A stretch of 64,000 nt of DNA from a virus (IMGVR_UViG_2531839524_000004); one strand, 5' to 3'; shown: positions 1 to 16,632, counted from the stretch's first letter. Translations and numbers: made by a program. Notes: generated by a model from the letters alone, not told the origin.

Positions 1-2368
1 TCGAGCGGAAAACCAGATTTTCGCGGCAACATTCGTGAAAGCCCGGCAAGAGGCTCTGGATAAGATCCAGAAAATCAATGATGACGGTTCACTTTCAGAT
101 GACGAAAAGAACAAGCTATTGGCACCGTTACGTGAAACGGTAAACAAAAGCTATCTGGAGCCTGCGCAAAAACTGGTTGATTCACTTTCTTCTCGTAAGA
201 ATGCGACCGAGAAGCAAATTGCGACTCTTAATGATCAGCTTGAAAAAGCCAAAAAGGATGGAAATACCGAGCAGATCCAGAAACTGCAAGGCAGTATTCG
301 TGGTTATCAGGAGCATTTGGAAGCCGTTGCTCAGGAGCTGACTCAGGCAGAGTTCGAGAGAGATAACGCGGCCAAAACTGGTAAGGGCGTAATGTCAAAC
401 CAGGGGACTGTTCTTGGGTTAGGTACAACTGATAAAGCTGCTCAGAAGGCGCTGGCGCAATATATGCGAAACCAGATGGATTCTGCGACTTATCAACGTA
501 CTTTGCCTGACGGCACTCCGATGATGGACTTCGAAGGTAAGCCGATTATTGGGCCTAAACAACTCAAGACGCAGCTTAATTTGCAGAAAGCATCCAGCGC
601 CAGCTCTCTGGAGAAAATGAGCGATGAAGAGCGTGCCGCAGCCATTGCTGCACTGACTAAAGCTCGTGAACAGGATGCCGCAGCCGCCGAGAAAGCAGCC
701 CAACGATCAGCTAACGCCTCGCAGCGTGCGGCCAAGAAGGAACAGGCAGCGCAACAGAAACTGGCAGCCGGATACCAGAAGGCTCTGGACAAAGCCGATC
801 AGCTTATGGGGCAAATGGGGGAAAGCTCTAAGGCTACGGTATCGTTTGATCAGTCTCTTCGCGATACAACGAAATCGCTGACAGATTTGGCTAATGCGGT
901 TCCTAACGAGTTCATCACTCAAGAGATGATCGACAAGGCGAAAAAACGTCTTGAAGACCTCAAAAATGCGACACCTGAATATCGCGAGATGTTTAATCGC
1001 CGCAATGTTGAGCAGATGATCTCCACCTGGGCGCCGGAGGCGGATTCCATTATTAGTGCTGGCTATACGCCGTCTCGCGAAGAGAAAGTTGCTGATTTCG
1101 AAGACACCTACAACCGCAATCTCAAAGCGTTGATAGAACTTCGTGATAAGGCGTCTGATCCTAAAGTTGTGGCGCTTTATACAAAGAAAATCAATCAACT
1201 GATTGCTGCTGGCAATACCGCGCTTATTAAAGAGACGGGGACTGCGACGCAGAAGTTGGCACTGGAATACGAAAACCTGGCAGAGCAGATCGAAAGCACC
1301 TGGACTGATTTGTTTAGTGGCTTAACTGATGTCCTGACTGATTTCGTTATTAACGGGAAGATGAGCTTCTCCAGCCTATCTCAGTCCATTTTGAAAGATA
1401 TCACCAATATGGTCGTGAAGTCGCAAATCACGCTGCCTCTAATGAACATGTTGGGGATGGGAACCACCGCAGCTGGTAGTTCACAGAGTGGCAATTTGCT
1501 CACTGGAGTTGCTTCTGCCGTTGCCAATCAAGGTGTACGAATGGGCAACACTGTTAATGGCGACAAGTCGGTAGGAGAAGCCACGAAGGAGACGTCCAGT
1601 TCGGGAACTGGATTGGGGCAAACAACACAGCAGACCACCAGCGCAATTGGCACAGCAACAAATGCGATTGGTAGCTGGGTATCGGGGCTATTTGATAGCA
1701 CCGAAGCCAAAGATGCTGAGACAAAAGCAGTGAAGGACTCCATCTTCTCGATGCAGAACCTCAGCTCTGTTACCGGCGCTCTGTCTGCCGCGTTTGCAAT
1801 GCTTGGAGCTAATGCTTCCGGCTCTGGTAATAAGTGGTTGAATTTCGGCGCGACAGTTGCATCTGGTTTGGTTTCAGTATGGGCTGGTGGTGGATTCGAT
1901 GGATTGATGTCCGGTTCTTCTGGCTCAACTTCCGGGTTCAACAATCTGACCAGTTCTGCTGCCGATGGCACGAATGGTATTCCTGCAATTCCGAAGTTTG
2001 CAAATGGTGGCATATTCGGAAAAGACGGCGTGATCCCGCTCCGGGCATACCAGAAAGGCGGTATCGCCAACTCACCTCAATTGGCGTTGTTTGGGGAAGG
2101 CGATATGAATGAGGCGTATGTTCCATTGCCTGATGGTCGAACAATCCCTGTAACGCTCAGTACCGATGGTATGAGTGGAGGAGGAAATGTTCTTTCTCCG
2201 GTATCAATTGAGATCAACGTCCATAGTGACGGTAGCACAACTGAATCCGGCGATACAGAAAGCATATGGAACAATGCCGCTCAACGGATGAAAGCAATCG
2301 CGCTTGAGACTATCGCTCAAGAGAAACGCCCTGGCGGATCACTCAACCCAAACACTCAACGTAACTAA
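1..2368 (+). CDS. Tail tape measure protein, 3' portion (gene starts upstream of the window)
   Basis: Reading frame is open from position 2 with no start; N-terminal part is charged and coiled-coil-like, C-terminal part Gly/Ser/Thr-rich; lies directly upstream of gpM/L/K/I/J-like genes. Confidence 0.75.
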   Translation, partial: RAENQIFAATFVKARQEALDKIQKINDDGSLSDDEKNKLLAPLRETVNKSYLEPAQKLVDSLSSRKNATEKQIATLNDQLEKAKKDGNTEQIQKLQGSIRGYQEHLEAVAQELTQAEFERDNAAKTGKGVMSNQGTVLGLGTTDKAAQKALAQYMRNQMDSATYQRTLPDGTPMMDFEGKPIIGPKQLKTQLNLQKASSASSLEKMSDEERAAAIAALTKAREQDAAAAEKAAQRSANASQRAAKKEQAAQQKLAAGYQKALDKADQLMGQMGESSKATVSFDQSLRDTTKSLTDLANAVPNEFITQEMIDKAKKRLEDLKNATPEYREMFNRRNVEQMISTWAPEADSIISAGYTPSREEKVADFEDTYNRNLKALIELRDKASDPKVVALYTKKINQLIAAGNTALIKETGTATQKLALEYENLAEQIESTWTDLFSGLTDVLTDFVINGKMSFSSLSQSILKDITNMVVKSQITLPLMNMLGMGTTAAGSSQSGNLLTGVASAVANQGVRMGNTVNGDKSVGEATKETSSSGTGLGQTTQQTTSAIGTATNAIGSWVSGLFDSTEAKDAETKAVKDSIFSMQNLSSVTGALSAAFAMLGANASGSGNKWLNFGATVASGLVSVWAGGGFDGLMSGSSGSTSGFNNLTSSAADGTNGIPAIPKFANGGIFGKDGVIPLRAYQKGGIANSPQLALFGEGDMNEAYVPLPDGRTIPVTLSTDGMSGGGNVLSPVSIEINVHSDGSTTESGDTESIWNNAAQRMKAIALETIAQEKRPGGSLNPNTQRN

Positions 2369-2410
2369 CTATCGACTGCCCCGGTCGGGGCAGTCTCACA
2401 AGGATGTGAG

Positions 2411-2746
2411 ATGGAAAGACAAACGTTTAATTGGTATCCAGATTACGAATCTGAAAAAAGCGTAAAACCGAATGTAACGGTACTTAATTTTGGTGATGAC
2501 TACGAGCAGCGACAGGCTCAAGGTCTTAATCGTATTAAAGAAGAATGGTCGTTAACCTTTACCAGATCATACAACGAAATTAATGCAATCGATGACTTCC
2601 TGACTGAGCGATCAGGCGTTGAATCGTTCTATTGGGTTAATCCAAGAGGCAAGCAGATTGTAGTTGTATGTGACAGTCATACGGTCAAGCGATATCAGGG
2701 GTACTGTGTCTTAACTGCTACATTCAGACAAGTATTTGAGGCTTAA
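2411..2746 (+). CDS. Minor tail protein (lambda gpM-like)
   Basis: 111-aa ORF in the canonical position between tape measure and gpL-like gene; call is by synteny and size. Confidence 0.55.
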   Translation: MERQTFNWYPDYESEKSVKPNVTVLNFGDDYEQRQAQGLNRIKEEWSLTFTRSYNEINAIDDFLTERSGVESFYWVNPRGKQIVVVCDSHTVKRYQGYCVLTATFRQVFEA

Positions 2747-2795
2747 GTATCTGGATAAGTAAGTACTAATTTACTATCATTGTGGCGCTGACAGG

Positions 2796-3527
2796 ATGTT
2801 AGCGCCTACTTATTTCAAGGATGAAACAATGGGAATTAAAGCTGATATTCAGAGCTTATCTCCCTCTGCACTCATTGAGTTGTTCGTACTGGATATGTCG
2901 AACACAACTTCAGGGGGGAAGCTATTCTTCCACGCCGGAACAAACGAACTGATGCAACCGGTCGTCTGGCAAGGAGTGACATACGAGCCGTGGCCAATAA
3001 AAGCATCAGGCTTTGACAAAACGGGCCAGGGAACGTTGCCACGTCCAAAAATTCAGGTATCGAACTTTGCCGGAACCGTCTCTGCGGAAGTTCAGGCAAA
3101 CGACGATCTTGTTGGCTGCCGCATTATTCGCAAGATGACGCTGGCTCGCTTCCTCGATGCCGTTAATTTTAAAGACGGTAATCCAACAGCAGATCCAAAC
3201 CAACATTTCCCGGATGAAATGTGGTTTATCGAACAGAAAACGCTCGAAACTCATCAGGTTGTCGAGTTTGAGTTGTCCAGTGTGTTCGATTTGATGGGGG
3301 TGCAACTGCCGTATCGTCAGATCATTAAAAACACCTGCCCGTGGAAATACCGAGGGCCAGAATGCGGCTATACCGGTCCATATTTCGACAAAAATAACCA
3401 GCAGACGTCTATGTCTGGTGCTGATTACTGCACAAAACGTTATGACGCCTGTAATGCGCGTCGGAATTATTTTGCCAACGGAGTGATCCATTTTGGCGGG
3501 TTTATTGGAGCTACGCGATATGGGTAA
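2796..3527 (+). CDS. Minor tail protein (lambda gpL-like)
   Basis: 243 aa; C-terminal Cys cluster 'CPWKYRGPECGY...C...C' as in gpL Fe-S proteins; a likelier start is the internal ATG at 2829 preceded by AAGGA. Confidence 0.7.
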   Translation: MLAPTYFKDETMGIKADIQSLSPSALIELFVLDMSNTTSGGKLFFHAGTNELMQPVVWQGVTYEPWPIKASGFDKTGQGTLPRPKIQVSNFAGTVSAEVQANDDLVGCRIIRKMTLARFLDAVNFKDGNPTADPNQHFPDEMWFIEQKTLETHQVVEFELSSVFDLMGVQLPYRQIIKNTCPWKYRGPECGYTGPYFDKNNQQTSMSGADYCTKRYDACNARRNYFANGVIHFGGFIGATRYG

Positions 3528-4909: not shown

Positions 4910-7900
4910 TTGAACATGGAACAGTTCAAGAAGAAAAAGCTACCGCTGTTTATTGCCGGTGCGGGTGGTAAAAAAAGCAGCAAAAGCTCCAGTCGTACAC
5001 CGGTTGAAGCCGACGATACCGTAAATTCTCGTGCAATGGCCGCTATCCTCGATCTTCTTGGGGAAGGGGTAATTGGCGGCTTAGTAAATGGCGCAAGATC
5101 TATTTTTATCGACGATCTGCCGATTGTAAATGAAGACGGTTCCTCCAACTTCAGCGGAATCACATGGGATTTTCGCGACGGTTCACAAGACCAGACTCCA
5201 ATGTCTGGCTTTGATTTCGTTGAAACGCCTAAATCCGTCAATATCCAGTTAAAAAAAACACATTATGTAACGGTTTCAATCGATAACGATGAAGCTGATC
5301 GGGTTCGTGTCATCATGAAGTTTCCTTCTTTGCGAAGCATAGATAAAAAAACTGGTGACACGAACGGTACGACTGTTGAGTACAAGTTCCAGATAGCAAA
5401 TGGCGACTCAACATTTGTAGATGTGGTCGCGGAAGGGGAAAAAAGCGTTGGCATTAAGCTAACAGCAAAGAAGACCGGCGTTTATTACCGTAGCTATGAG
5501 CTGAAGCTGCCTAAGCCTGGACGCGCATACAAGGTTCGTGTAGTCCGTATTACCGATGATAACAGTAGCCAGTATCTCTATAACGATACATGGGTGGATT
5601 CAATCGGGGAAATTGTCGATACACCGATGAACTATCCAAACTCTGTTTTGGTTGGATTGAAGGTAAACTCTGAGCAATTCGGCAGCACCATGCCATCTCG
5701 CTCTTATCTGGTGCGTGGCCTAAAAATTCGAGTACCTTCAAACTATAACGAGTCCAGTAACACTTACGCTGGGGTATGGGATGGCACTTTTAAGCTGTTG
5801 TCTTCTTCGAACCCCGCGTGGATTCTCTTTGATTTGCTGACCAATGCTCGATATGGCCTTGGTCAGTATGTGTCGGAATCTATGATTGACCTTGGCCAGT
5901 TGTACCAGATTGGTCGATATTGTGACGAAGAGGTCGATGATGGCTTTGGTGGCAAAGAGAAACGCTTTGCAATCAATACGCAGATCACCAGTCGACAGGA
6001 CGCATACCGGCTAATTCAGGATATTGCTGGAGCATTCCGCGGCATGGTGTTTTGGGCTGGTGGGATGGTTAACATCATGCAGGATAGCCCATCAGATCCG
6101 GTAATGATGTTTACCAACTCTAACGTCAAAGATGGATTGTTTACCTATAAAGGTTCTGCGCGTAAAGATCGCCCATCCGTTGCGCTCGTAACCTACAACA
6201 ACAAGGAGGACGGTTATAAGCAAAACATCGAGTACGTTGAAGATCAGGACGCAATGCGCCGTTATGGTGAGCGTAAGACAGAAGTCGTAGCATTTGGCTG
6301 TACAAGCCGAGGGCAGGCTCACCGAGTTGGTTTATGGCTTTTATATACCGCCAGAATGGAGTCGGATGTAATTACATTTACTGCCGGCTTAGACGCGTCA
6401 TTTCTGATGCCTGGTGAAACCGTTCTGATTCAGAACAAATATCGCGCAGGCAAACGTAACTCAGGTCGAATTGTGGCGTTTACCAAAAACAGCGTCACAC
6501 TCGATGCGCCTGTGTCGTTAGCCAAAGGCGGCTGCTTTATTCGAATACTGAATCAGGAAGGCAAAATCGTTGAACGCGATGTTCTTGAAACTGGCGAAAA
6601 TATAACAAAAGTTACGTTTTCAAAAGCCCTGTCTTCGGCTGAAACGCCTGTTTTGAACGGCGTCTGGACTATTACAGAACCAGACCTCGAACCTATGCGC
6701 GTTCGCATCGTTAACATCGCGCAGGGGGAAACGCCGGGTAGCTTTGACATCACCGCTGTTGAGAACAATCCGTCTAAATATGAGGCGATCGACAATGGTG
6801 CAACGCTTATCCCGCAAAATACGACGGTATTGGACCCGACTTACTCCAAGCCGTCTAATTTGCAAATCACCGAAGGGACTTATCTCTCAAGCCCTGGCAA
6901 CCTGTCAGTAAAACTGACTGCAACATGGGAAGGGAAATCTCCAGAGTATTGGATCAGTTGGCGACGTTCTGATGAAAACAATGTATCGAACTGGCAATCG
7001 GCGCGTGTAACCGAAGAGCAATACGAAATCGTTAATGTTGCGGAGAATGGACGCTACGACTTCCAGCTGTATGCGGTTTCATTCAACGGTAAAAAAACAG
7101 AGATTATCAGTACCGTTTATCAGGTGCTGGGCACAATGACACCGCCAGATGCCCCAACGTCATTAACGGCCGTTGGAGACTATCGTAATGTGATACTGAA
7201 TTGGGTTAATCCAGATTCGGTAGACCTTGATCACATTAATGTTTACGCGTCCCAGACCAATAATCTGGATACGGCGAAACTGATCGCAGAGTCTGCAAGC
7301 ACCACCTTTACACATGCTGGTCTTGGGGATAGCGAAACGTGGTATTACTGGGTTCGAGCATCGAACAAGCGAGGTATGTTAAGTCCTCCGAACTCAAACT
7401 TGGGTACAGAGGCGACAACTCGCGATGTACTGTCGTTCCTGACTGGCAAAATTACATCTTCCGAGCTTGGTCAGGCTCTGCTTGAGGACATCAACAGCAA
7501 AGCCTCTCAAGAAGCCGTTGACGAGTTAAATGAGCATATCAACCAGAGCGTCGAATCTTTGGAGGGGGCGGTAAACGACGTTAAGGAAGATATAGCTGAA
7601 TTAGATAAGCAGTTCAGCGATAACCTCGCGGATTTTGAAATAAAATTCAACGAGCGTAGCGATGCTTTGGAGAACGCACAAACCGAGCTTAAAGGGGAGG
7701 TTTCGGCAACGATCGACAAGGTCAATGAAGCGTTTGAAAAAATTGATGCTACTGATGCTGCAATTGTTGAAATCGAAAATACAGTATCTGAACACGATAA
7801 AGCTCTCGCTAATACAGTCGAGGCAATAAAGGCTGCAAGAGATGAAGCGGCGGCTCTTATTGCTAAGGAAAGCGAGGCTCGTGTTGAAGGCGATGCTGCA

Positions 7901-9643
7901 AACGCTAAACAACTGGAAGTGTTGCAGTCAACGGTAGAGGAAAGCTCCGCTGCCGTTGAAGAAATGAAAAAGACGGTTGCAGAGGTCGATCGTGCAAGTG
8001 CAGAACTGACTACGAACATTGAGGCGTTAGCCAAAACAAATATTGACCTGGCTCTTCGTCAAGATGAAGACCAGCACAAGCAGATGGTCAATAACGCGAA
8101 GATCGCAACAACACAGAAAACCTTTGCTGATGATATGTCTGCAATGGCTACGAAGGTTGAAGAAATTCGCGTAGAAATTGGCGAAGACATTAAGGCCAGT
8201 ATTCTGGAAGAGTCCACCGCGCGTGCCGATGGCGATGAAGCGTTAGCAAAGCGTGTCACTCAGCTGCAATCTAAGTTTGAAGGAGATATCAGCGCGGCGA
8301 TTAGTACAGAACAGGAGGCTCGTACATCTGCCGATGAAGCTTTGACGAAACAAATAACTCAGCTTGAGTCGAAAGTAAGCAACGATATTGTCGCAGCCAT
8401 TAAGGAAGAGCAAGAAGCCCGAGCAACGGAAGATTCGGCTCTGGCAAGCCAGATCACCCAACTTCAGGCAAAAGTTGATGATGATATTTCTGCTGCAATA
8501 CGCAGTGAGCAGGAGGCTCGTGCGAGCGGAGACTCTGCGTTAGCTAAACAAATAAACCAGCTTCAAGCAAAGGTTGACGGTGATATATCCGCCGCCATCA
8601 CTCAGGAGCAGGAGGCCAGAGCAAGTGCTGACGAGGCGCTCTCACGAGAAATTAACAGCCTGCGGGCGCAGACCGGAACTGACATTGCCGCAGCCGTTGC
8701 TGTAGAGACAAAGGCAAGGACTGACGCTGATAGTGCATTGTCCAGCCAGATTACATCTCTTACAGCAAAAGCTAATGATCTCGAGGCGTCTCTTGCCAAA
8801 GAAACAACGGCTCGTGCAGATGGGGATACCGCTTTAACAAAAGAGGTTTCAAGTTTAAAAGCACAGACTGCGAAAGATATTAGTGCGGCCGTTGCAGTGG
8901 AAACGCAGGCTCGAACTGATGCTGACTCGGCGTTGTCATCTCAGATCACCAAGCTGACCTCTCAATACAAAGAGGATATTAAAGCGGCTGTGGCAACCGA
9001 AACGAAAACGCGTACAGAGCAAGATGCGGCATTGGCGACCCAAATCACAAACTTAGAGTCTCAAACAGCAGCCAACATTTCTGCGGCGGTCACAACTGAA
9101 ACGACAGCGAGAACGCAGGCAGATAATGCTCTAAGTGGGCGAATCGATACTCTGAAAGCAGAGGTGGATGGAAATACCGCGACAATTCAACAGCAGGCAA
9201 CAGCTATTGCTGATACCAACAAAAAAGTGTCAACCGCGTGGACGTTGAAAATGGAGACTTCAACGAGCGGAGGGCAGAAGTATGTTGCCGGTATTGCGCT
9301 TGGTATTGACACCACTGGGCTATCTCAGTTTTTGGTTCAGGCGGACAGGTTTGGTTTGGTCAACTCTGTCAACGGGAAGATCACCACGCCATTTGTTATC
9401 GAAAACAGTATTGCCTATATGAATGGTGCTTATATCAAGGATGGCACAATCACCAATGCAAAGGTAGGCGATCTGCAATCTACCAATTTTGTTAGCGGTA
9501 GATCTGGATGGCGATTCGGTAAAAATGGAACGCTTGAAATAAACGGTAATAGCGGCGGCAATGGGCGATTGGTCATTAATGGTCAGCGGATTGACGTTTA
9601 TGACGATAACAACGTCCTACGAGTAAGAATTGGCCGTCTGTGA
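4910..9643 (+). CDS. Tail tip / central fibre host-specificity protein (lambda gpJ-like) with an inserted coiled-coil repeat array
   Basis: 1577 aa following the K/I-like genes; large N-terminal region typical of gpJ-like proteins; C-terminal half holds tandem 33-aa repeats. Confidence 0.8.
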   Translation: MNMEQFKKKKLPLFIAGAGGKKSSKSSSRTPVEADDTVNSRAMAAILDLLGEGVIGGLVNGARSIFIDDLPIVNEDGSSNFSGITWDFRDGSQDQTPMSGFDFVETPKSVNIQLKKTHYVTVSIDNDEADRVRVIMKFPSLRSIDKKTGDTNGTTVEYKFQIANGDSTFVDVVAEGEKSVGIKLTAKKTGVYYRSYELKLPKPGRAYKVRVVRITDDNSSQYLYNDTWVDSIGEIVDTPMNYPNSVLVGLKVNSEQFGSTMPSRSYLVRGLKIRVPSNYNESSNTYAGVWDGTFKLLSSSNPAWILFDLLTNARYGLGQYVSESMIDLGQLYQIGRYCDEEVDDGFGGKEKRFAINTQITSRQDAYRLIQDIAGAFRGMVFWAGGMVNIMQDSPSDPVMMFTNSNVKDGLFTYKGSARKDRPSVALVTYNNKEDGYKQNIEYVEDQDAMRRYGERKTEVVAFGCTSRGQAHRVGLWLLYTARMESDVITFTAGLDASFLMPGETVLIQNKYRAGKRNSGRIVAFTKNSVTLDAPVSLAKGGCFIRILNQEGKIVERDVLETGENITKVTFSKALSSAETPVLNGVWTITEPDLEPMRVRIVNIAQGETPGSFDITAVENNPSKYEAIDNGATLIPQNTTVLDPTYSKPSNLQITEGTYLSSPGNLSVKLTATWEGKSPEYWISWRRSDENNVSNWQSARVTEEQYEIVNVAENGRYDFQLYAVSFNGKKTEIISTVYQVLGTMTPPDAPTSLTAVGDYRNVILNWVNPDSVDLDHINVYASQTNNLDTAKLIAESASTTFTHAGLGDSETWYYWVRASNKRGMLSPPNSNLGTEATTRDVLSFLTGKITSSELGQALLEDINSKASQEAVDELNEHINQSVESLEGAVNDVKEDIAELDKQFSDNLADFEIKFNERSDALENAQTELKGEVSATIDKVNEAFEKIDATDAAIVEIENTVSEHDKALANTVEAIKAARDEAAALIAKESEARVEGDAANAKQLEVLQSTVEESSAAVEEMKKTVAEVDRASAELTTNIEALAKTNIDLALRQDEDQHKQMVNNAKIATTQKTFADDMSAMATKVEEIRVEIGEDIKASILEESTARADGDEALAKRVTQLQSKFEGDISAAISTEQEARTSADEALTKQITQLESKVSNDIVAAIKEEQEARATEDSALASQITQLQAKVDDDISAAIRSEQEARASGDSALAKQINQLQAKVDGDISAAITQEQEARASADEALSREINSLRAQTGTDIAAAVAVETKARTDADSALSSQITSLTAKANDLEASLAKETTARADGDTALTKEVSSLKAQTAKDISAAVAVETQARTDADSALSSQITKLTSQYKEDIKAAVATETKTRTEQDAALATQITNLESQTAANISAAVTTETTARTQADNALSGRIDTLKAEVDGNTATIQQQATAIADTNKKVSTAWTLKMETSTSGGQKYVAGIALGIDTTGLSQFLVQADRFGLVNSVNGKITTPFVIENSIAYMNGAYIKDGTITNAKVGDLQSTNFVSGRSGWRFGKNGTLEINGNSGGNGRLVINGQRIDVYDDNNVLRVRIGRL
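8186..9174 (+). repeat. Ten tandem 99-bp (33-aa) repeats inside the gpJ-like gene
   Basis: Repeat units such as 'DISAAISTEQEARTSADEALTKQITQLESKVSN' and 'DIVAAIKEEQEARATEDSALASQITQLQAKVDD' recur in-frame. Confidence 0.75.
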
Positions 9644-9736
9644 TGGTGGAAAAAAAATTTTATATCGGTAAGAATAGGTAAGTACTTACTTAATGGCGGG
9701 CAAGGATAGCCCGCCAAATCAAGGAGCATATTCAAC

Positions 9737-12700
9737 ATGTGGTACAGGGAAGGTACTATCACATTTACACAGGGTAGCAATACTCTGGTTGGGGCAGGGA
9801 CAGCCTGGAACGTAACAGCTAATGGGGTGTTGCCTGGGATGATCGTCATTGGCCCCGACAACAAGCTGTATGAGATCAAGCGCGTAACCAGTGATACGAA
9901 CATTGTTCTCTCAGAACCTTATACCGGCGAAACTCAGTCTGAAGTTCCGTGCCGAATCATTACGACCTATGAAGGCGACTTAACACAGTTTAGCGCGCGC
10001 TTTACTGCACTAATGTCGCGTATGTCGGCTGATTCCAAGTCCATGCGCAGTTGGTTGACTGCTCTGGATGAGGTGACAATCGAGCGTGAAGACGGTACAG
10101 AAGTGACCGTTAAGCCGCTAATGCAGATCGTCAACGAGCACAACGAAAACGTTGAGTGGTATAAAAATAACACTGACGCGATTGATGCTGCTGGCGACAA
10201 AGCTCGTGAGGCGGCGGCCAGTGCTGCCGCAGCAGCAGAAAGCGCCAATACCGCTGGAGAAAAAGCCTCTCAAGCGTCTCAAAGTGCATCCGCTGCGGCA
10301 TCCTCACAAAGTGCTGCAAGTGCGAGCGCAACTGCTGCGAAAAAATCTGAAACGAACGCACAAGCCGCAAAAGAAGCGGCAGCAGAATCAGCATCTTTAG
10401 CGTCGGCCAAAGCATCGGAGGCAGCAACATCTGCGTCCAGTGCCTCTGCATCTAAGGATGCAGCCAAAGCATCAGAGACTAACGCTTCATCGAGCGCAAA
10501 CGCGGCAGCATCATCGGCAACAGAAGCTGCAAATTCGTCTAAGGCAGCAAAAACGTCAGAGGCAAACGCAAAAGCATCTGAAACGGCAGCCGAACAGAGT
10601 GCATCGTCTGCAAACAGTTCGAAATCTGCGGCAGAAGCGTCAGCAAGCGCAGCCTCAGCAAGTGCGGATAGTGCTTCATCAAGTGCAACAGCGGCAGGAA
10701 AATCTGCGGATAGCGCATTGTCATCAGCGACAACAGCTACCACAAAAGCGACAGAGGCGACGAGTCAGGCTACAGCTGCTAAAAATTCAGCATCTGCAGC
10801 AAAAACCTCTGAAACAAATGCAAAGACTTCAGAAGACAATGCTGCTTCCTCTAAGGCGGCAGCTGCTGAATCTGCAAGTTCTGCGTCTGCATCAGCCTCC
10901 TCAGCATCCGCTTCAAAAGATGAGGCGACCAAGCAGGCATCAGAAGCGAAGGGCAGTGCTTCAACGGCATCCACGAAAGCAACAGAGGCGGCAGGCAGTG
11001 CGACGGCTGCATCTCAGAGCAAAACTGCTGCTGAATCCGCTGCGACCCGTGCGGAAGCTGCTGCTGATCGTGCTGAAGAGATTGCCGGTGCAGTTGCGAT
11101 GGAAGACGCAAGCCTTACAACTAAAGGTGTTGTGAAACTTAGCAGTGCTGTCGATAGCACCAGTGAATCGCTGGCCGCAACGCCAAAAGCAGTTAAAGCA
11201 GCCAATGACAATGCGAATAGCAGGGTGCCATCTAACCGAAAAATTAACGGAAAAGCACTGACTGCGGATATAACATTAACGCCGAAAGATATTGGTACTT
11301 TAAATTCAGTAACGATGTCTTTCTCTGGCGGGGCTGGGTGGTTCAAACTGGCTACGGTTACCATGCCACAAGCGAGTTCCATCGTTTACATCACATTGAT
11401 TGGTGGTGCTGGATATAATGTTAACTCCCCTATGCAGGCTGGTATATCTGAACTTGTTCTTCGTGCGGGAAATGGAAATCCAAAAGGTCTTACTGGTGCG
11501 TTATGGCGAAGGACATCGGTTGGATTTACTAATTTTGCATGGGTGAATACATCCGGCGATACATATGATATTTATGTTGAGATTGGCAATTATGCGACGA
11601 GTGTAAATGTCCACTGGGATTGTACTGCAAATGCGTCAGTTTCTATTTATACATCGCCAACATATTCAGCGAGTAAGCCTGCCAGCGTTACCGATGGTGT
11701 TGTTTATACGATGTATAGCTCACATCAGAAACCTACGCCATCAGATATTGGAGCACTGCCAACAACCGGAGGAACAGTTTCTGGTCCGTTGTCTGTTACA
11801 GGCGGATTAACTGGTTCATTGAATGGTAATGCAAGTACAGCAACGAAATTACAGACGACAAGAACTATCGGCGGCGGGAGCTTTGATGGTACTGCAAATA
11901 TTAATTTGCCAGGTGTTAATACGACTGGTAATCAGAATACAACAGGTAATGCGGCTACTGCTACGAAGTTGCAGACTGCGCGTACTATTAATGGGGTGTC
12001 GTTTGACGGTTCGGCAAATATTTCCTTGTCACCAGCAAATATAGGTTGCCCGGCATCTCCTACTGGTTGGTTAACTACAGGAAGTAATGGCGGAGCAATA
12101 ACAACAGCCCAGTTAGTGACGTTATTGCAAAATAATGGAGCCTTTAACACAAAGGCATGGATTGCTCGATGTGCGTGGGCCTATGCCAATAGCGCAACCA
12201 TACCAAATAGTGAAACTGGTTGTGGCGTTATTCCATTGGCAGGAGCTGTTATAGAAGTATTTAATAACGGTAGTAGTTCAAATAATTATACGATCCGCAT
12301 AACAACGGCCACAACGACAAGTGTTTCCGGTGCTCTCACTAATGCGGAGTTTATCTATGTATTTAATGGCACAGATTATTCTCCAGGATGGCGAAGAGTA
12401 TATAACACGAAAAACAAACCAACTGCATCTGACGTTGGTGCATTACCTCTTACCGGTGGTACATTATCTGGAGGTTTGACATCTTCTGGTGAGATCGTTT
12501 CAAAATATGCAAATGGTTTCCGCATTGCTTACGGTAGCTTTGGGTTCTTTATCCGTAATGACGGCGGCAGCACATATTTCATGCTAACAGCATCAGGAGA
12601 TACGTTAGGTTCATGGAACGGCTTGCGACCGATTACAATTAATAATACTAGCGGGGTTGTGTCTATTGGTAATGGACTAAATGTTACTGGTGGCGTAAAT

Positions 12701-13645
12701 GGTAGTTTGAACGGTAATGCTTCAACAGCTACGAAGTTGCAAACAGCGAGAAACATCAATGGTGTTAAGTTTGATGGCTCAGGCGATATCAACATTAATA
12801 CATTGGTATCTCGTGGCCGAGTTACGGCGTTAAGCGGCTCTACTCAAGGCACTGCTGGCATTCAAATGTACGAGGCGTACAACAATAGCTATCCGACCAC
12901 GTATGGCAACGTATTGCACATGAAAGGTGCGAGTGCTGCTGGCGAGGGTGAGTTGCTTATTGGCTGGAGTGGTACGAGCGGTGCACATGCGCCGGTTTTC
13001 ATTCGCTCCCGAAGAGATACCACTGATGCAGCATGGTCAGCGTGGGCACAGGTATATACCGCTAAGGATTCAATCCCTGGTGTGAATACAACCGGTAATC
13101 AGAACACTACTGGTAATGCTGCCACCGCCACAAAATTGCAGACAGCAAGGAAAATTGCTGGTGTGGCGTTTGATGGCTCTGCCGATATTACTTTGACTGC
13201 GGCTAACCTTAATGCCTATACGAAAACAGAGGTAACAAACCTTCTAAGTTCCTATGTGAAGAGCAGTTCTCTTCCAAGCATGACTGTGCGAACTTCCTCT
13301 GTTTCAGGTGGGGATATGGGCATGAGTTTGTCCGCATTCATTAGCCACCTTAAATCAAATGGGGCGTTTAGCAAAAGTTATTGGATTGGCTTTGGCGATG
13401 CTATGGGATTCAATGCTGGCAGTATCAACAATATAACGGGATTTGGTGCTGTAGAATTAGCAGAATCCATAATCGAAGTTTTTAATCTACCTAATGGTGA
13501 TTATACAATTCGTTTAACGACGTCACACAAAGCTGACTACGGTGGGATTACAAACGCAATCCTCGTTTATCACTACCGCAGTAATAGAAACCCGGCAGGT
13601 CAATGGCTTAAATTTGCCGGTACTCTTGGGGCTACAAACAACTGA
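9737..13645 (+). CDS. Tail fibre protein
   Basis: 1302 aa; Ala/Ser-rich low-complexity segment, then four copies of 'GNA(S/A)TATKLQT(A/T)R.I.G..FDGS' and two copies of 'GVNTTGNQNTTGNA', motifs typical of phage fibre repeats; more AT-rich distal part. Confidence 0.75.
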   Translation: MWYREGTITFTQGSNTLVGAGTAWNVTANGVLPGMIVIGPDNKLYEIKRVTSDTNIVLSEPYTGETQSEVPCRIITTYEGDLTQFSARFTALMSRMSADSKSMRSWLTALDEVTIEREDGTEVTVKPLMQIVNEHNENVEWYKNNTDAIDAAGDKAREAAASAAAAAESANTAGEKASQASQSASAAASSQSAASASATAAKKSETNAQAAKEAAAESASLASAKASEAATSASSASASKDAAKASETNASSSANAAASSATEAANSSKAAKTSEANAKASETAAEQSASSANSSKSAAEASASAASASADSASSSATAAGKSADSALSSATTATTKATEATSQATAAKNSASAAKTSETNAKTSEDNAASSKAAAAESASSASASASSASASKDEATKQASEAKGSASTASTKATEAAGSATAASQSKTAAESAATRAEAAADRAEEIAGAVAMEDASLTTKGVVKLSSAVDSTSESLAATPKAVKAANDNANSRVPSNRKINGKALTADITLTPKDIGTLNSVTMSFSGGAGWFKLATVTMPQASSIVYITLIGGAGYNVNSPMQAGISELVLRAGNGNPKGLTGALWRRTSVGFTNFAWVNTSGDTYDIYVEIGNYATSVNVHWDCTANASVSIYTSPTYSASKPASVTDGVVYTMYSSHQKPTPSDIGALPTTGGTVSGPLSVTGGLTGSLNGNASTATKLQTTRTIGGGSFDGTANINLPGVNTTGNQNTTGNAATATKLQTARTINGVSFDGSANISLSPANIGCPASPTGWLTTGSNGGAITTAQLVTLLQNNGAFNTKAWIARCAWAYANSATIPNSETGCGVIPLAGAVIEVFNNGSSSNNYTIRITTATTTSVSGALTNAEFIYVFNGTDYSPGWRRVYNTKNKPTASDVGALPLTGGTLSGGLTSSGEIVSKYANGFRIAYGSFGFFIRNDGGSTYFMLTASGDTLGSWNGLRPITINNTSGVVSIGNGLNVTGGVNGSLNGNASTATKLQTARNINGVKFDGSGDININTLVSRGRVTALSGSTQGTAGIQMYEAYNNSYPTTYGNVLHMKGASAAGEGELLIGWSGTSGAHAPVFIRSRRDTTDAAWSAWAQVYTAKDSIPGVNTTGNQNTTGNAATATKLQTARKIAGVAFDGSADITLTAANLNAYTKTEVTNLLSSYVKSSSLPSMTVRTSSVSGGDMGMSLSAFISHLKSNGAFSKSYWIGFGDAMGFNAGSINNITGFGAVELAESIIEVFNLPNGDYTIRLTTSHKADYGGITNAILVYHYRSNRNPAGQWLKFAGTLGATNN

Positions 13646-13848
13646 TTTAGGGATTATTTATATGGCTGTGTGGTTTAAAAATGCGATTTCACAGCCGCAA
13701 TCATAGGGATATATTAGTGAGTTACTAGATGCGAATATGAACAACCGTTAAACGGTATATGTATAGGTAGGTAAGTATATACCTACAATTAAAAGGAGAA
13801 GTGTGATATAAATCCGCCATCCCGATTTGACTTTTCACGGAGGAAAAC

Positions 13849-14172
13849 ATGTCGAACGAGATGGCGGGCGTTACAACAGAGCAAGTTGAGCGTATTGCCG
13901 CGATCGTTGCTCGGGAGGTTGTTGGCAAATTAGGCAAAGAGCTACGTGAAGAAATTGGCCAGGAGGTCAATGATCAGCTGAAAACCTACTTTGGTGATAT
14001 GACCCCGGCGCAACATAGTATTCAACACTCCAACCTGGACAAGCTCCTTAACCGGTTAGATTCCATCTCCAGTGGGTTCTTTGGCGGCATTGTTTCTAAA
14101 ATAACGTCGTTCATTATTACTGCACTGCTTTTGGGGTTAGCCGCGTATGGCGTAAAAAATGGACTGCAATAA
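13849..14172 (+). CDS. Holin-like small membrane protein (putative)
   Basis: 107 aa with a single C-terminal TM segment 'ITSFIITALLLGLAAYGV'; immediately precedes the putative endolysin with overlapping ends. Topology is atypical for a holin. Confidence 0.35.
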   Translation: MSNEMAGVTTEQVERIAAIVAREVVGKLGKELREEIGQEVNDQLKTYFGDMTPAQHSIQHSNLDKLLNRLDSISSGFFGGIVSKITSFIITALLLGLAAYGVKNGLQ

Positions 14173-14185
14173 CAGGAGATCAAGG

Positions 14186-14878
14186 ATGAAGACTCCGAGA
14201 GGCATTCGTAATAATAACCCCGGTAATCTTGATAAAGGATCACCGTGGCAAGGTCTGGTTGCGAATCCAGATGAACCGCGCTTTTGCACGTTTAAAGACC
14301 CTGTTTGGGGGATTCGTGCGTTGGCGGTGACTCTAATTACCTACCACGACAAACGTCGCGCAAAAGACGGCTCAAGTATCGATACCATTCGTGAAGTTAT
14401 TGAACGTTGGGCACCGCCGAATGAAAACAACACTGACGCCTACATTAATGAGGTGTCTAAAGCCGTTGGTGTAACCGCAGACATGATCATCGATCTGCAT
14501 GATTACGACATTCTTCGACCTTTGGTTGAGGCAATCATTCGCCATGAGAATGGGCGAGGTCCGCTAAAAACGCTGAACACCTGGTATGCGGCAGAAGTTA
14601 TTGAGGAAGGTCTGCGTCGAGCTGGCGTCGTTAAGCCGGTGAAAACCGTGAAGGCTGTTCCTGTAACTAAAGAAACAGCAGGCGCAACTGTCACAGCAGG
14701 TATTGGTCTGGCGCAGCTGGCCGATGTTATGCCGCAGGTTTCCGCTGCTATGGATAAAGCACAAGGTCATATCTCTAGCGGGGATACAGTACGCATCATC
14801 TTCGGTATTGCCACTATTGTTGTGGCTGGATTTATCGCCTGGTCGCAGGTAAGAAGACACCAGAAAGGGATGGTCTAA
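14186..14878 (+). CDS. Putative endolysin / peptidoglycan hydrolase with C-terminal membrane segment
   Basis: 'GIRNNNPGNL' N-terminal motif, which I associate with phage cell-wall hydrolases; located between holin-like and spanin genes; ATG at 14186 is preceded by AGGAG. Confidence 0.5.
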   Translation: MKTPRGIRNNNPGNLDKGSPWQGLVANPDEPRFCTFKDPVWGIRALAVTLITYHDKRRAKDGSSIDTIREVIERWAPPNENNTDAYINEVSKAVGVTADMIIDLHDYDILRPLVEAIIRHENGRGPLKTLNTWYAAEVIEEGLRRAGVVKPVKTVKAVPVTKETAGATVTAGIGLAQLADVMPQVSAAMDKAQGHISSGDTVRIIFGIATIVVAGFIAWSQVRRHQKGMV

Positions 14879-14879
14879 T

Positions 14880-15131
14880 ATGCTAGGCAGCCTGATGACA
14901 AAGCTCAAAGTTGCTTTGATTACGCTGGCTGCCGTTCTTTTCGTTCTGGTCGGCGCTTACACGATGGGCGGAAATGCGGCGCGACGAGCAATGGAAGAGA
15001 AGGCAAAACAGGAAGACAGGAAACGACTTCAAAGCACAGTGGACGTCAAAAATGAAACACTTGATGAGTTACGGCGCAAGGATGCTTCTACTGTTCATCA
15101 TGAGTTGCACAATAAGTGGTTGCGTGATTAA
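14880..15131 (+). CDS. i-spanin (Rz-like)
   Basis: 83 aa with N-terminal TM 'LKVALITLAAVLFVLVGAYTMG' then charged coiled-coil-like region; directly after the endolysin. Confidence 0.5.
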   Translation: MLGSLMTKLKVALITLAAVLFVLVGAYTMGGNAARRAMEEKAKQEDRKRLQSTVDVKNETLDELRRKDASTVHHELHNKWLRD

Positions 15132-15282
15132 GCCTCAATCCTCTGGTGTGCTTTTCTGCGATGCGGCTACACCGCTATACATCAGCCGTGATGATCTCAT
15201 GACCGAAGAGACTGAAAGGGAAGTACTTTTTCACAATATGATAGGGGAGCGATTGTGTGGATGGGGCAGAAAAGTGCCATAA
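15052..15282 (+). CDS. o-spanin lipoprotein (Rz1-like), out-of-frame overlap with the i-spanin gene
   Basis: 'MKHLMSYGARMLLLFIMSCTISGCV' has a signal peptide and lipobox-like 'ISGC'; start lies inside the i-spanin gene in another frame, the classic Rz/Rz1 arrangement. Confidence 0.5.
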   Translation: MKHLMSYGARMLLLFIMSCTISGCVIKPQSSGVLFCDAATPLYISRDDLMTEETEREVLFHNMIGERLCGWGRKVP

Positions 15283-15456
15283 TAAAAGCGGAATTTTCTA
15301 ACATAAAATTTGCATATTATTAGAGCACAAGGTAGATTTGAAGCATGGATGTCAAGTAAATCATACCTTGTTTTAATAAATCGACGCATACTCGTAGCCT
15401 CTAAACCGACAAGGTCGCCGCTATGACATAAAGTTATTACCGGCTAAGGTGGAAAC

Positions 15457-15855
15457 ATGCATACTGCACTTAACGCATCTCGTTCTATTCAGACGATAAG
15501 AGACTGTACCAAGATGATCGCATCGGTTCCGTTGCGACATTGGAATGACTCGCTCCAAATTCGTGAAATGAACAAACCGGGTATGCTTAAGGATCAGCGT
15601 TTCATCGTTAACCTTAAAAGTGACGTTGAAGAAGGCAAGTTTACCATCAAATTGTTTGCAGAAATGATGGTGCTCAACAATCGGTTACGTTTTCTTGTTA
15701 AGCCAGAAAAACAGTTTCCCGATGTTGTGCGTTGTGAACAGGATGCTTTCTATGAGATTGAAAGCAAAATAGCTAAATTTATCAAAGATAAATACCGCGT
15801 AGATGTTAAAATAGCGAAACTGGATTCATCTACGGATATGCGGCTTGCTAACTAA
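15457..15855 (+). CDS. Hypothetical protein (first gene of a two-gene cargo operon)
   Basis: 132-aa ORF with its own upstream intergenic region; no motif recognised. Confidence 0.5.
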   Translation: MHTALNASRSIQTIRDCTKMIASVPLRHWNDSLQIREMNKPGMLKDQRFIVNLKSDVEEGKFTIKLFAEMMVLNNRLRFLVKPEKQFPDVVRCEQDAFYEIESKIAKFIKDKYRVDVKIAKLDSSTDMRLAN

Positions 15856-16632
15856 ATGTCACCATCATTCATAGCAGAGTATTCAAAAGTACTGTCTGGT
15901 TTCCCTGAATGTGAAGCAAGAGAGAAAATCAGAGTTGGCTACATGGTTAACTCTGATTTTTCTGTTTTACGGCTCACAGAGTGGTCCTTGATCGGGTCTA
16001 ATTATGATTACTGTTTGACAGTGTCATTTGTAGGCGACCCTGATGCAGATTGGCTTCAAGAACATGCAATGGATCTTGACGAGCAGGGGTATTCAGAAGC
16101 AGAGATAGTTCATAGTGTTCGTGAATTAGTTGGTGATGAGCAAGAAGATGATGACGGCATTCAGATCGCCAGGTTCGTCTACAAACGATTCCAGTTTCGC
16201 TCACAAAAAGGCTCTCATCTTGGGGTCCAGATTAAAGGGGCATTTGTAACCCCTTCAAAGGAACAAAAGGGACTTGCTAGAAGAGTTTACAATTTCCTTC
16301 TCAATTGGCATGACCATGTGGTATGTGATGACCATCAGACGGTTTACGGTGCCAGAATTTGGGCGGTCGGTATGCTTCTGGTCGGGCGTGTCCAAATCTA
16401 TGACAATTTAAACAAAGAATTTATAGATGTCCTTGTTGAAGGTGGTATTGGGCAGAATGGCGTCAAACCGTGGGACGCGCTGCTATTGAGCAGCGAGGCC
16501 CAGTTACGTCACTGGAACCCTATGGCCGTCAGCATAGACCCATCTAGTCAGATTCTCGCCATCATCTCCAAAGAAGACCGTCACATTGAAGTGGGCGTTA
16601 CAACTTTTGACGCCAGGTCTACCAACCATTAA
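15856..16632 (+). CDS. Hypothetical protein (second gene of the cargo operon)
   Basis: 258-aa ORF abutting the previous gene; followed by a rho-independent terminator; acidic stretch 'GDEQEDDDG'. Confidence 0.5.
   Translation: MSPSFIAEYSKVLSGFPECEAREKIRVGYMVNSDFSVLRLTEWSLIGSNYDYCLTVSFVGDPDADWLQEHAMDLDEQGYSEAEIVHSVRELVGDEQEDDDGIQIARFVYKRFQFRSQKGSHLGVQIKGAFVTPSKEQKGLARRVYNFLLNWHDHVVCDDHQTVYGARIWAVGMLLVGRVQIYDNLNKEFIDVLVEGGIGQNGVKPWDALLLSSEAQLRHWNPMAVSIDPSSQILAIISKEDRHIEVGVTTFDARSTNH

Follow-up and report, generated by a model that had tools for sequence, protein, structure and literature searches.

Repeated 40-residue units at module junctions in the mosaic tail fibre gene of an SSU5-like Escherichia coli phage-plasmid

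Introduction

Mosaic phage tail fibres of the type described here are textbook knowledge. The gene analysed in this study is the open reading frame (ORF) 9737..13645 on the + strand of a viral DNA stretch of 64,000 nucleotides (IMGVR_UViG_2531839524_000004; the whole stretch is termed the window). This ORF starts with ATG, encodes 1302 residues, and is the tail fibre gene, for host recognition, of an SSU5-like E. coli phage-plasmid of ~110 kb. A mosaic tail fibre gene had been placed at 9737-13645 by a reading made from the DNA alone (hereafter the sequence-only reading), and this placement is confirmed by the ORF itself and by the relative Cyrano, in which the gene is annotated as 'tail fiber protein'. 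For the T-even gp37/gp38 locus, it is recounted in PMC10879196 that the fibres are mosaic and that their variable parts are swapped at short conserved motifs (Tetart et al. 1998). According to large-scale surveys, it is chiefly in receptor-binding proteins that domains have been shuffled recently (PMC10684548).

The fibre of the window consists of an N-terminal anchor, a shaft of ~43 heptads, the Phage_fiber_2 motif PF03406, and the knobs D1, T1, a gp34-like domain, D3 and T2, which are separated by copies of a 40-residue unit termed R (Table 1). This fibre is modular, and it is likely that R and PF03406 are the junctions at which its modules are exchanged, deleted and duplicated, such that the phage is re-targeted.

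The SSU5-like fibres (SSU5, Cyrano/pLF82 and pG749_2) are encoded at the same position, in which a GpJ-like gene and the fibre gene are followed by the genes for holin, endolysin and spanins. They differ from the fibre of the window in that Cyrano has another D3 cassette, and that SSU5 and the non-Escherichia relatives share the anchor only. Mu S/S' (5YVQ, 8JU3) shares the PF03406 motif, the T domain and the gp34-like domain with this fibre, and the P1-like IncY plasmids, which carry an invertase and Tfa, share the D1, R and D3 modules at ~83%. However, in Mu and P1 the tips are exchanged by inverting a DNA segment, and a Tfa-type chaperone (U/U') is required, whereas no invertase, no inverted cassette and no chaperone gene is found here. 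In addition, the T domain of Mu S' is internal, while the second T copy of the present fibre forms its very C-terminus.

The T-even gp37/gp38 system is similar in that short conserved motifs flank the variable receptor-binding segments and mark the exchange junctions, and some relatives of the present gene carry a Gp38-like adhesin gene behind the fibre (Table 1). It is different in that its motifs are His-boxes and glycine islands, instead of the 40-residue R unit and PF03406, and in that the element described here is a temperate siphovirus-like phage-plasmid. The allele of the window has neither gp38 nor a gp37_C tip. The fibre of phi458 (lambdoid, Stf-type) resembles that of the window in the heptad shaft, PF03406, D1 and R1-R2, with 82% identity over gene positions 525-2273, but it has another N-terminal anchor and differs in everything after R2, and lambdoid fibre genes have a Tfa gene downstream.

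Table 1. Modules of the fibre gene in the window and tip types of its relatives
Feature	Residues	Location	Strand	Basis or remark
N-terminal anchor domain	1-150	9737..10186	+	sole part conserved across genera
Ala/Ser heptad-repeat shaft, ~43 heptads	~150-457	10184..11107	+	autocorrelation, Fourier analysis, heptad layout
Phage_fiber_2 motif PF03406, 'TTKGVVKLSSAVDSTSESLAATPKAVKAANDNA'	459-499	11111..11233	+	Pfam E 2.1e-20, 72.5 bits; second conserved junction motif
D1 globular module	519-672	11291..11752	+	no Pfam family
R1 (core 11825-11901) and R2 (core 11945-12021)		11825..12021	+	tandem array, 120-bp/40-residue period
T1 internal Mu-S'-type knob	766-893	12032..12415	+	phmmer against 8ju3 residues 186-334, E 6.5e-28
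Gp34_trimer-like domain PF21446	867-968	12335..12640	+	Pfam E 2.2e-28, 99.5 bits (gathering score 27)
R3 core		12713..12789	+	copy of the core motif
D3 exchangeable cassette between R3 and R4	1023-1112	12803..13072	+	island of higher third-position GC
R4 block (core 13112-13188)		13076..13206	+	left-hand junction of tip cassettes
Neck, short helix, 'ANLNAYTKTEVTNLLSSY'	1156-1173	13202..13255	+	helix at residues 14-24 of the AlphaFold2 (AF2) model
T2 C-terminal tip domain, terminal variant of the T knob		13256..13642	+	paralogue of T1; fold match to 8ju3
3' flank of the tip cassette		13646..13804	+	homology with other-tip relatives resumes at 13759-13804
Tip, gp37_C/HxH type		L014		downstream Caudo_TAP assembly gene, E 8.6e-44
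Tip, Peptidase_S74 intramolecular chaperone		L009		three small ORFs downstream
Tip, CMS-2020a type		L002		downstream Gp38-like adhesin gene, PF05268, E 1.9e-70
Tip, T2		window, Cyrano		no downstream accessory gene

R units and duplicated module

The sequence-only reading described two near-identical DNA blocks in the downstream part of the gene, at ~11905-12020 and ~13075-13190, each of which encodes the same peptide motif. Both blocks exist, the first at 11909-12039 and the second at 13076-13206, and each contains the coding sequence of the quoted peptide. They are 84% identical as protein, but only 73% identical as DNA, so that the description as near-identical DNA does not hold. Nor is the motif present only twice. 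The core motif GNAxTATKLQTxRxIxGxxFDG occurs in four copies, which start at residues 697, 737, 993 and 1126 (DNA positions 11825, 11945, 12713 and 13112), and the full 40-residue R unit is GNAxTATKLQTxRxIxGxxFDGxxxI followed by PGVNTTGNQNTT.

When the R2 and R4 blocks are compared over 43 codons, 14 codons are identical, 22 differ synonymously and 7 differ non-synonymously. Third codon positions are 40% identical and hold 26 of the 35 mismatches, and the blocks share at most 11 nt in an unbroken match. This codon pattern indicates that the R peptide is under strong purifying selection and that its silent sites are near saturation. Because the synonymous sites are near saturation, either the duplication of the blocks is old or the copies have been acquired separately.

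The blocks are part of a larger duplication. Residues 719-876 and 1108-1280 are 42% identical (E 1e-31, self-BLAST of the split protein), and the duplicated module consists of the repeat and a globular knob of ~130 residues, with T1 as the internal copy and T2 as the C-terminal copy. The repeats are well beyond chance, with BLAST E values of 2e-13 to 1e-31. Self-BLAST of the whole protein gives the identity match alone, and the duplication is exposed by splitting the protein. Tandem Repeats Finder reports just a trivial array of 21 nt, the R units being too diverged in DNA.

The R1-R2 and R3-R4 segments give no Pfam match even at E <= 10, and the R units are outside the PF03406 family. When the segments are scanned separately, no Pfam model matches R, T1, T2, D1 or D3. 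The sole PDB sequence that resembles R is the C-terminal tail of the decoration protein Dec of phage L (6E3C), with 'NAETADKLSTARTI...SFDGSANV' in Dec and 'NAATATKLQTARTINGVSFDGSANI' in R (E 0.013), and no R unit is detected in any PDB fibre chain. The C-terminal motif of Dec folds only upon trimerisation, into a three-stranded spike (PMC6449081, PMC11398494). Dec is unlike R in that its motif is present in a single copy and belongs to a capsid protein, and the likeness is weak and short. The R units probably form short intertwined trimeric beta-helix segments between the knobs, because this is how they would fold by analogy with the Dec spike. A search with R peptide strings finds nothing in the literature searched.

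Breakpoints in related loci

The gene was compared with 85 loci, namely Cyrano, CMS-2020a, phi458, 80 IMG/VR contigs, pG749_2 and one P1-like IncY plasmid (single loci are given as L with a number). Ends of homology were taken from high-scoring segment pairs of at least 150 nt, with contig ends left out, and the R zones were defined as the units +/- 12 nt. Nine of the 33 homology-end clusters are in R units, which account for 12.8% of the gene (binomial P = 0.02). At R1-R2, the clusters are at gene positions 2085-2104, 2236-2243 and 2273-2292. At R3, homology starts at 2976-2989 and ends at 3055-3062, and at R4 the clusters are at 3324-3340 and 3440-3474. Thus, the breakpoints that the sequence-only reading expected at the duplicated blocks in comparative alignments are found, and its proposal that these blocks are substrates for exchange is supported. 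The proposal applies to corresponding or adjacent units and to exchange between genomes, but the two blocks within this gene are poor partners of each other (73% DNA identity, exact matches of <=11 nt).

Modules are shared across phages, and they are replaced between R units, or between PF03406 and an R unit. Cyrano and five IMG/VR loci (L004, L005, L006, L010 and L042) are colinear with the window as far as R3, which ends at gene position 3062, and then anew from 3337, where the R4 block begins, while the D3 segment between these positions is non-homologous. The segment replaced in Cyrano coincides with an island of higher GC content at third codon positions (GC3). L012 and L013 are 96% identical to the window from R1 to the stop codon and have a different D1, which is bounded by PF03406 and R1. 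In L029 and L030, R2 is joined straight to R3. The P1-like elements have R3-D3-R4 upstream of R1..R3, and their modules are thus permuted. Homology of phi458 and CMS-2020a is lost inside R2.

The tip junction at R4 is exact to the base in L008 and L016. These loci show 11 mismatches in 3,452 colinear bases, with 6 of them at gene positions 1-2088 and the other 5 at 2300-3452. Of these 5 single-nucleotide polymorphisms (SNPs), three are clustered inside the R4 unit, at window positions 13093, 13120 and 13123. Homology stops exactly at 13188/13189, which is the last base of the R4 core, and past 13188 L008 has a further R unit and then a different tip.

Outside R, homology ends also accumulate just behind PF03406 (39 ends at gene positions 1472-1491), at the edges of D1, at the conserved C-terminal end of the T domain (2593-2605) and behind the neck (15 ends at 3520).

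Loss of one R unit in the window

The number of R units varies between alleles. The window and pG749_2 differ by exactly 120 bp, which corresponds to one R unit, with 5 SNPs before this difference and 1 after it. R1 of the window is a chimera of the ancestral units 1 and 2, and its junction is in CAGACG[A/G]CAAGAACTATCGG, a stretch in which 19 of 20 bases are identical between the adjacent units. Most relatives have three tandem units at this place, and the unit lost in the window is kept in pG749_2 and Cyrano. The window has most simply lost one unit recently, by unequal recombination or slippage between adjacent units, because most relatives keep three tandem units at this position in their sequences.

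Tip cassettes and the T2 tip

At least five different C-termini are carried on the same anchor among the relatives. Several of the tip cassettes bring their own chaperone or adhesin genes (Table 1). Whichever tip is present, the relatives become homologous to the window again at 13759-13804, shortly before the holin gene, and this is the common right-hand junction. Since the right-hand junction is shared, the tip cassette extends from the R unit (or the neck) to 13759-13804 and includes the helper genes. The neck is common to the T2 tips and the S74-type tips, and it is directly after the neck that the 15 loci mentioned above lose homology.

In L002 (Escherichia phage CMS-2020a), a T-even-type Gp38 homologue (PF05268 and Gp38_N) is encoded at 7741-8580, directly after the fibre gene. 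The fibre of L002 ends in a 'VEAVKELREEVRELKAKM' tail, which by eye resembles an S74-type intramolecular chaperone. If so, this would be a tip in the style of phage T2 in a temperate plasmid prophage. In L009, three ORFs (84, 202 and 77 residues) lie between the fibre and holin genes, at 6854-7957. The product of the 202-residue ORF has no Pfam match. The 77-residue product has a lipoprotein-like signal ('LSLTGC'), and judged from this signal it may be a receptor-masking or superinfection-exclusion protein that is carried along with the tip.

The 203 nt between the stop codon of the fibre gene in the window and the holin gene (13849) contain no + strand ORF of >=60 residues, and hence no Tfa-type (Caudo_TAP) gene of the kind seen in lambda Stf/Tfa, P2 H/G and Mu S/U. 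Neither the whole fibre protein nor its T2 segment gives a Peptidase_S74 (PF13884) match. In our reading, T2 would be the receptor-binding part and would fold unaided by a chaperone. The AF2 model of T2 has a mean predicted local distance difference test (pLDDT) score of 70, and among the PDB structures only 8ju3 resembles it at a significant level (Foldseek E 5.8e-7, TMq 0.63, 30% identity). T1 is paralogous to T2, with 31-42% identity. T2 has lost two features of typical T domains, namely their conserved Cys residues and the 'SPGWRR' motif.

A word-indexed protein search with T2 alone gives 5 partial proteins, and an exhaustive HMMER search is needed to find the family. With a T1+T2 profile, 362 clusters are found at E <= 1e-3 among 1.84 billion representative proteins, and some of these clusters are from clearly non-enterobacterial phages. 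Among the best matches, 141 of the 150 occurrences of the T domain are internal, and the other 9 are located no more than 15 residues from the C-terminus. All five representatives of the T2 subtype (P0006, P0007, P0008, P0010 and P0011) carry it at the C-terminus. P0011 has a differing N-terminus, which from its sequence is taken as P2/Mu type. The DNA of the T2 tip (13202-13645) is detected in 77 of 5426 complete E. coli genomes, and all of the 102 places at which it occurs are on plasmids and none is chromosomal. The T2 tip seems to be confined to the phage-plasmid gene pool. In contrast to T2, the other modules of the gene are common to lambdoid fibres (phi458) and P1-like elements.

Mechanism of module exchange

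R and PF03406 are conserved and appear structurally self-contained, and they would hence serve as exchange junctions. The exchange would run among the fibre genes of SSU5-like, P1-like, lambdoid and Mu/P2-like phages, and swaps of modules would re-target the phage to new receptors. We infer that the events take place within R, either as homologous or homeologous recombination, in which RecA or a phage annealase would act, or as slippage.

Several points weigh against this reading. The R copies within the gene share 64-76% nucleotide identity and are identical over <=14 nt. Efficient RecA-dependent exchange usually needs roughly 20-30 bp of identity. Because the identity between R copies is this short, non-corresponding units should seldom undergo classical homologous recombination, and exchange between such units would need relaxed (annealase-type) recombination, or rare events that are rescued by selection. 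Units that are adjacent or correspond to each other show far greater similarity, as in the 19 of 20 bases shared at the deletion junction. Many junctions are off R, at gene positions 525, 1387, 1554-1575, 1961-2038, 2549-2680, 3284 and 3520, and the endpoint counts at the edges of R are inflated, because BLAST extends through conserved motifs. The model of T2 is of medium confidence, as its mean pLDDT indicates, and the roles of R, T1 and T2 are read here from the sequence and this predicted fold. Finally, survivorship of viable chimeras could yield the same pattern of junctions without R being mechanistically preferred.

The last point leads to an explanation by selection instead of mechanism, according to which the genes are joined anywhere, only the chimeras that are joined at neutral connectors (R, PF03406 and the neck) fold, and R is a spacer. 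This explanation is possible, but on the unlikely side. It accounts for the junctions at domain edges other than R, namely those after the neck, after PF03406 and at the C-terminus of the T domain. It also agrees with the low DNA identity between non-corresponding R units and with the purifying selection on the R peptide that is seen in the 22 synonymous and 7 non-synonymous codon differences. However, the junction of the 120-bp deletion is in the 20-nt near-identical stretch of the adjacent units, as homology-guided exchange predicts. Likewise, the junction of L008 is at the last base of the R unit that is shared by both partners, and the patch of SNPs in this unit resembles a conversion tract. 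Selection and homology-guided exchange are compatible with each other, and selection probably contributes too.

Taken literally, the earlier proposal would mean that the blocks at ~11905-12020 and ~13075-13190 arose by a recent duplication of DNA and that they recombine with each other within the gene to delete or duplicate the receptor-binding modules between them. The 84% identity of the blocks as protein, the duplication of the whole R+T module, and the fusion of R2 to R3 in L029 and L030, which lack the T1 and gp34-like modules, are what it would lead one to expect. It is nevertheless improbable, since the blocks share only 73% of their nucleotides and 40% of their third positions, with 11 nt as the longest exact match, and since a fusion of R2 to R4 is present in 0 of the 85 loci.

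That the block pair represents the template and variable repeats (TR/VR) of a diversity-generating retroelement (DGR), or the crossover sites of an invertible host-range switch (Mu G/P1 C/shufflon-like), can be practically dismissed, because both copies have the same orientation within one ORF and the next genes are those for holin and endolysin, although two repeats of ~130 nt in a fibre gene are superficially TR/VR-like and the P1-like relatives that share modules with this gene have an invertase and an inverted alternative cassette. The 35 mismatches of the candidate DGR pair involve each of the four bases (A 10, T 13, G 7, C 5) and are thus not specific to adenine, 26 of them are at third positions, and no search was aimed at a reverse transcriptase. 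An invertible segment, as in Mu G, P1 C or p15B Min, was rejected as no inverted repeat of >=18 nt is present in 9000-16500, and a silent cassette as no second fibre-like sequence is present within the 64-kb window.

Significance of the modular fibre

The modular fibre of the window is a clear example of the known phenomenon of mosaic fibres, and a near-identical allele is already public. The current view of fibre evolution is unchanged. In the literature searched, no description was found of the 40-residue R connector, of the T knob family, for which 8JU3 is the only structure, or of the chaperone-less terminal T2. The details of the R connector, the T knob family and the T2 variant are refinements, not a new kind of system.

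A wider reading, which at present is rather doubtful, is that R is an unannotated universal connector of enterobacterial phage fibres, and that T2 is a rare C-terminal receptor-binding tip that folds by itself independently of a chaperone, is derived from a normally internal Mu-S'-type knob, and in E. coli is confined to SSU5-like phage-plasmids. If this were true, cut-and-paste at R4 would be a general and structure-safe way to re-target these fibres. It might also be that the fibre carries, in T1 and T2, two T knobs with separate binding activities.

Phage-plasmids of the SSU5 group occur commonly in E. coli from clinical and animal sources, and the fibre gene sets their host range. The locus gives an unusually clean picture of tip exchange that is resolved to the base pair, with a 40-residue unit as the left junction and a site upstream of the holin gene as the right junction. 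It is useful for the annotation of fibres, as Pfam lacks models for R, T, D1 and D3, and for the choice of junctions in host-range engineering.

Anchor, shaft and base composition

In plasmids of Salmonella (SSU5), Yersinia pestis, Enterobacter and Citrobacter, homology is limited to the start of the gene, from position 1 to ~480-623, at 73-78%. Among these cross-genus matches of the anchor, which are on plasmids of ~100-137 kb, the shortest covers gene positions 1-407 and the longest 1-623. The anchor is 97-100% identical in every E. coli relative, irrespective of the tip. The conserved N-terminal anchor would attach the fibre to the tail tip.

Residues ~140-460 had been described as a low-complexity region made almost entirely of Ala, Ser, Thr, Lys and Glu, and this composition is borne out. 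At residues ~155-455, Ala and Ser account for 61% and the five residues together for 85%, as compared to 38% for the five in the remaining protein. Of the two short repeats quoted for this region, 'SETNA' occurs three times, but 'AAKAS' occurs once and is not a repeat. Nor is the region featureless, since it shows a strict heptad periodicity. With Ala and Ser coded as indicator sequences, the autocorrelation shows maxima at lags 7, 14, 21, 28 and 35, and the Fourier power at period 3.5 is 6.16, as compared to a maximum of 2.46 in 500 shuffles. When residues 150-462 are written in 45 rows of seven, the consensus is [S/T]-A-A-x-x-S-A, with Ala in 43 of the 45 rows in one column and Ser in 32 of the 45 rows in another, and ~43 of the heptad rows form an unbroken run.

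Because of this heptad periodicity, which is its sole basis, the stretch is probably a trimeric alpha-helical coiled-coil shaft. The Ala/Ser stretch has the unbroken heptads and the small or hydrophobic core positions of a coiled coil. The heptad shaft is common to lambdoid side-tail-fibre genes, for example that of phi458, at 68-82% nucleotide identity.

The distal part of the gene had also been described as more AT-rich than the rest. The overall GC content indeed falls after ~11150, but GC3 is low already from residue 155. GC3 is 0.55 in the anchor, which is close to the 0.45-0.51 of the neighbouring backbone genes, and 0.29-0.40 from residue 155 on, with an island of 0.49 at 12803-13072. 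The distal fall in GC is mainly due to the end of the GCN codons for Ala. An AT-rich, and therefore foreign, distal domain is too simple a view, as silent sites are AT-rich throughout the gene downstream of the anchor, except in D3.

Other modules between shaft and tip

PF03406 is present in a single copy, above the gathering score of 22 bits. It matches residues 115-155 of Mu S, and in P0157 and P0194 it corresponds to the KGxVQLSSA...ATPKAVK motif. This motif is seen when the 71-residue segment 11084-11296 is scanned alone, while hmmscan of the whole protein finds Gp34_trimer only, probably because the Ala/Ser heptad region triggers the composition-bias filter and thereby hides PF03406 in the whole-protein scan. 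Automated annotation of such fibres will under-call PF03406.

D1 is common to the Yersinia myophages vB_YpM_5/6 (85%) and the P1-like IncY plasmids, and it is at a different position in CMS-2020a. T1 is replaced by a divergent T domain in L023, L031 and L040. The gp34-like domain matches residues 243-340 of Mu S (5yvq) and T4 gp34 (4uxe/5nxh).

Genomic context and relatives

The nearest allele is that of the E. coli plasmid pG749_2, which is ~100% identical in each module. Escherichia phage Cyrano, a 108-kb phage of the same size as plasmid pLF82, is 88.5% identical over 92% of the gene by megablast. Salmonella phage SSU5 shows 77.7% nucleotide identity at gene positions 1-515 only. In PLSDB, 531 plasmids match the gene. 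They are mostly non-mobilizable plasmids of E. coli and E. albertii of 100-126 kb, and the full-length matches are on plasmids of this size. From the plasmid matches and the matches to Cyrano and SSU5, it follows that the element is an SSU5-like phage-plasmid and that the gene is its tail fibre gene. The anchor is homologous to those of the SSU5/pMT1/pHCM2 group, and the gene is located between a GpJ-like gene upstream and a lysis cassette downstream, as in the other ~110-kb plasmids of this kind.

The upstream ORF 4910..9643 encodes 1577 residues with FNIII-A_GpJ and Phage-tail_3 domains (Pfam), and its product is the tail-tip host-specificity (GpJ-like) protein. The fibre gene is followed by lysis genes, the counterparts of which in Cyrano are annotated as holin, endolysin, Rz and Rz1. 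From R4 through the lysis genes (13073-14500), the window is 95.8% identical to Cyrano.

The GpJ-like protein contains at least 8 copies of the 33-residue repeat 'DISAAI..EQEAR.SADEAL..QI.QLQAKV', encoded at 8288-9190 (residues ~1127-1427). Seven of them are at a spacing of 33 residues, with one gap of 65 residues between residues 1259 and 1324. This array, which is unseen in the DNA by Tandem Repeats Finder, resembles a long coiled-coil-like insertion near the C-terminus.

In L033 and in the plasmids CP025883, CP025870, CP025894 and CP025868, IS2 is inserted in the region from T1 to the gp34-like domain (gene position ~2650), which results in a truncated fibre of 939 residues. The allele of L021 is also truncated, to 852 residues. 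Because of these interrupted and truncated sequences, a fraction of the phage-plasmids probably makes no functional fibre. In Cyrano (L001), genes annotated as a KacT-type acetyltransferase toxin with its antitoxin and as ParA are located beyond the lysis cassette, at 8680-9514.

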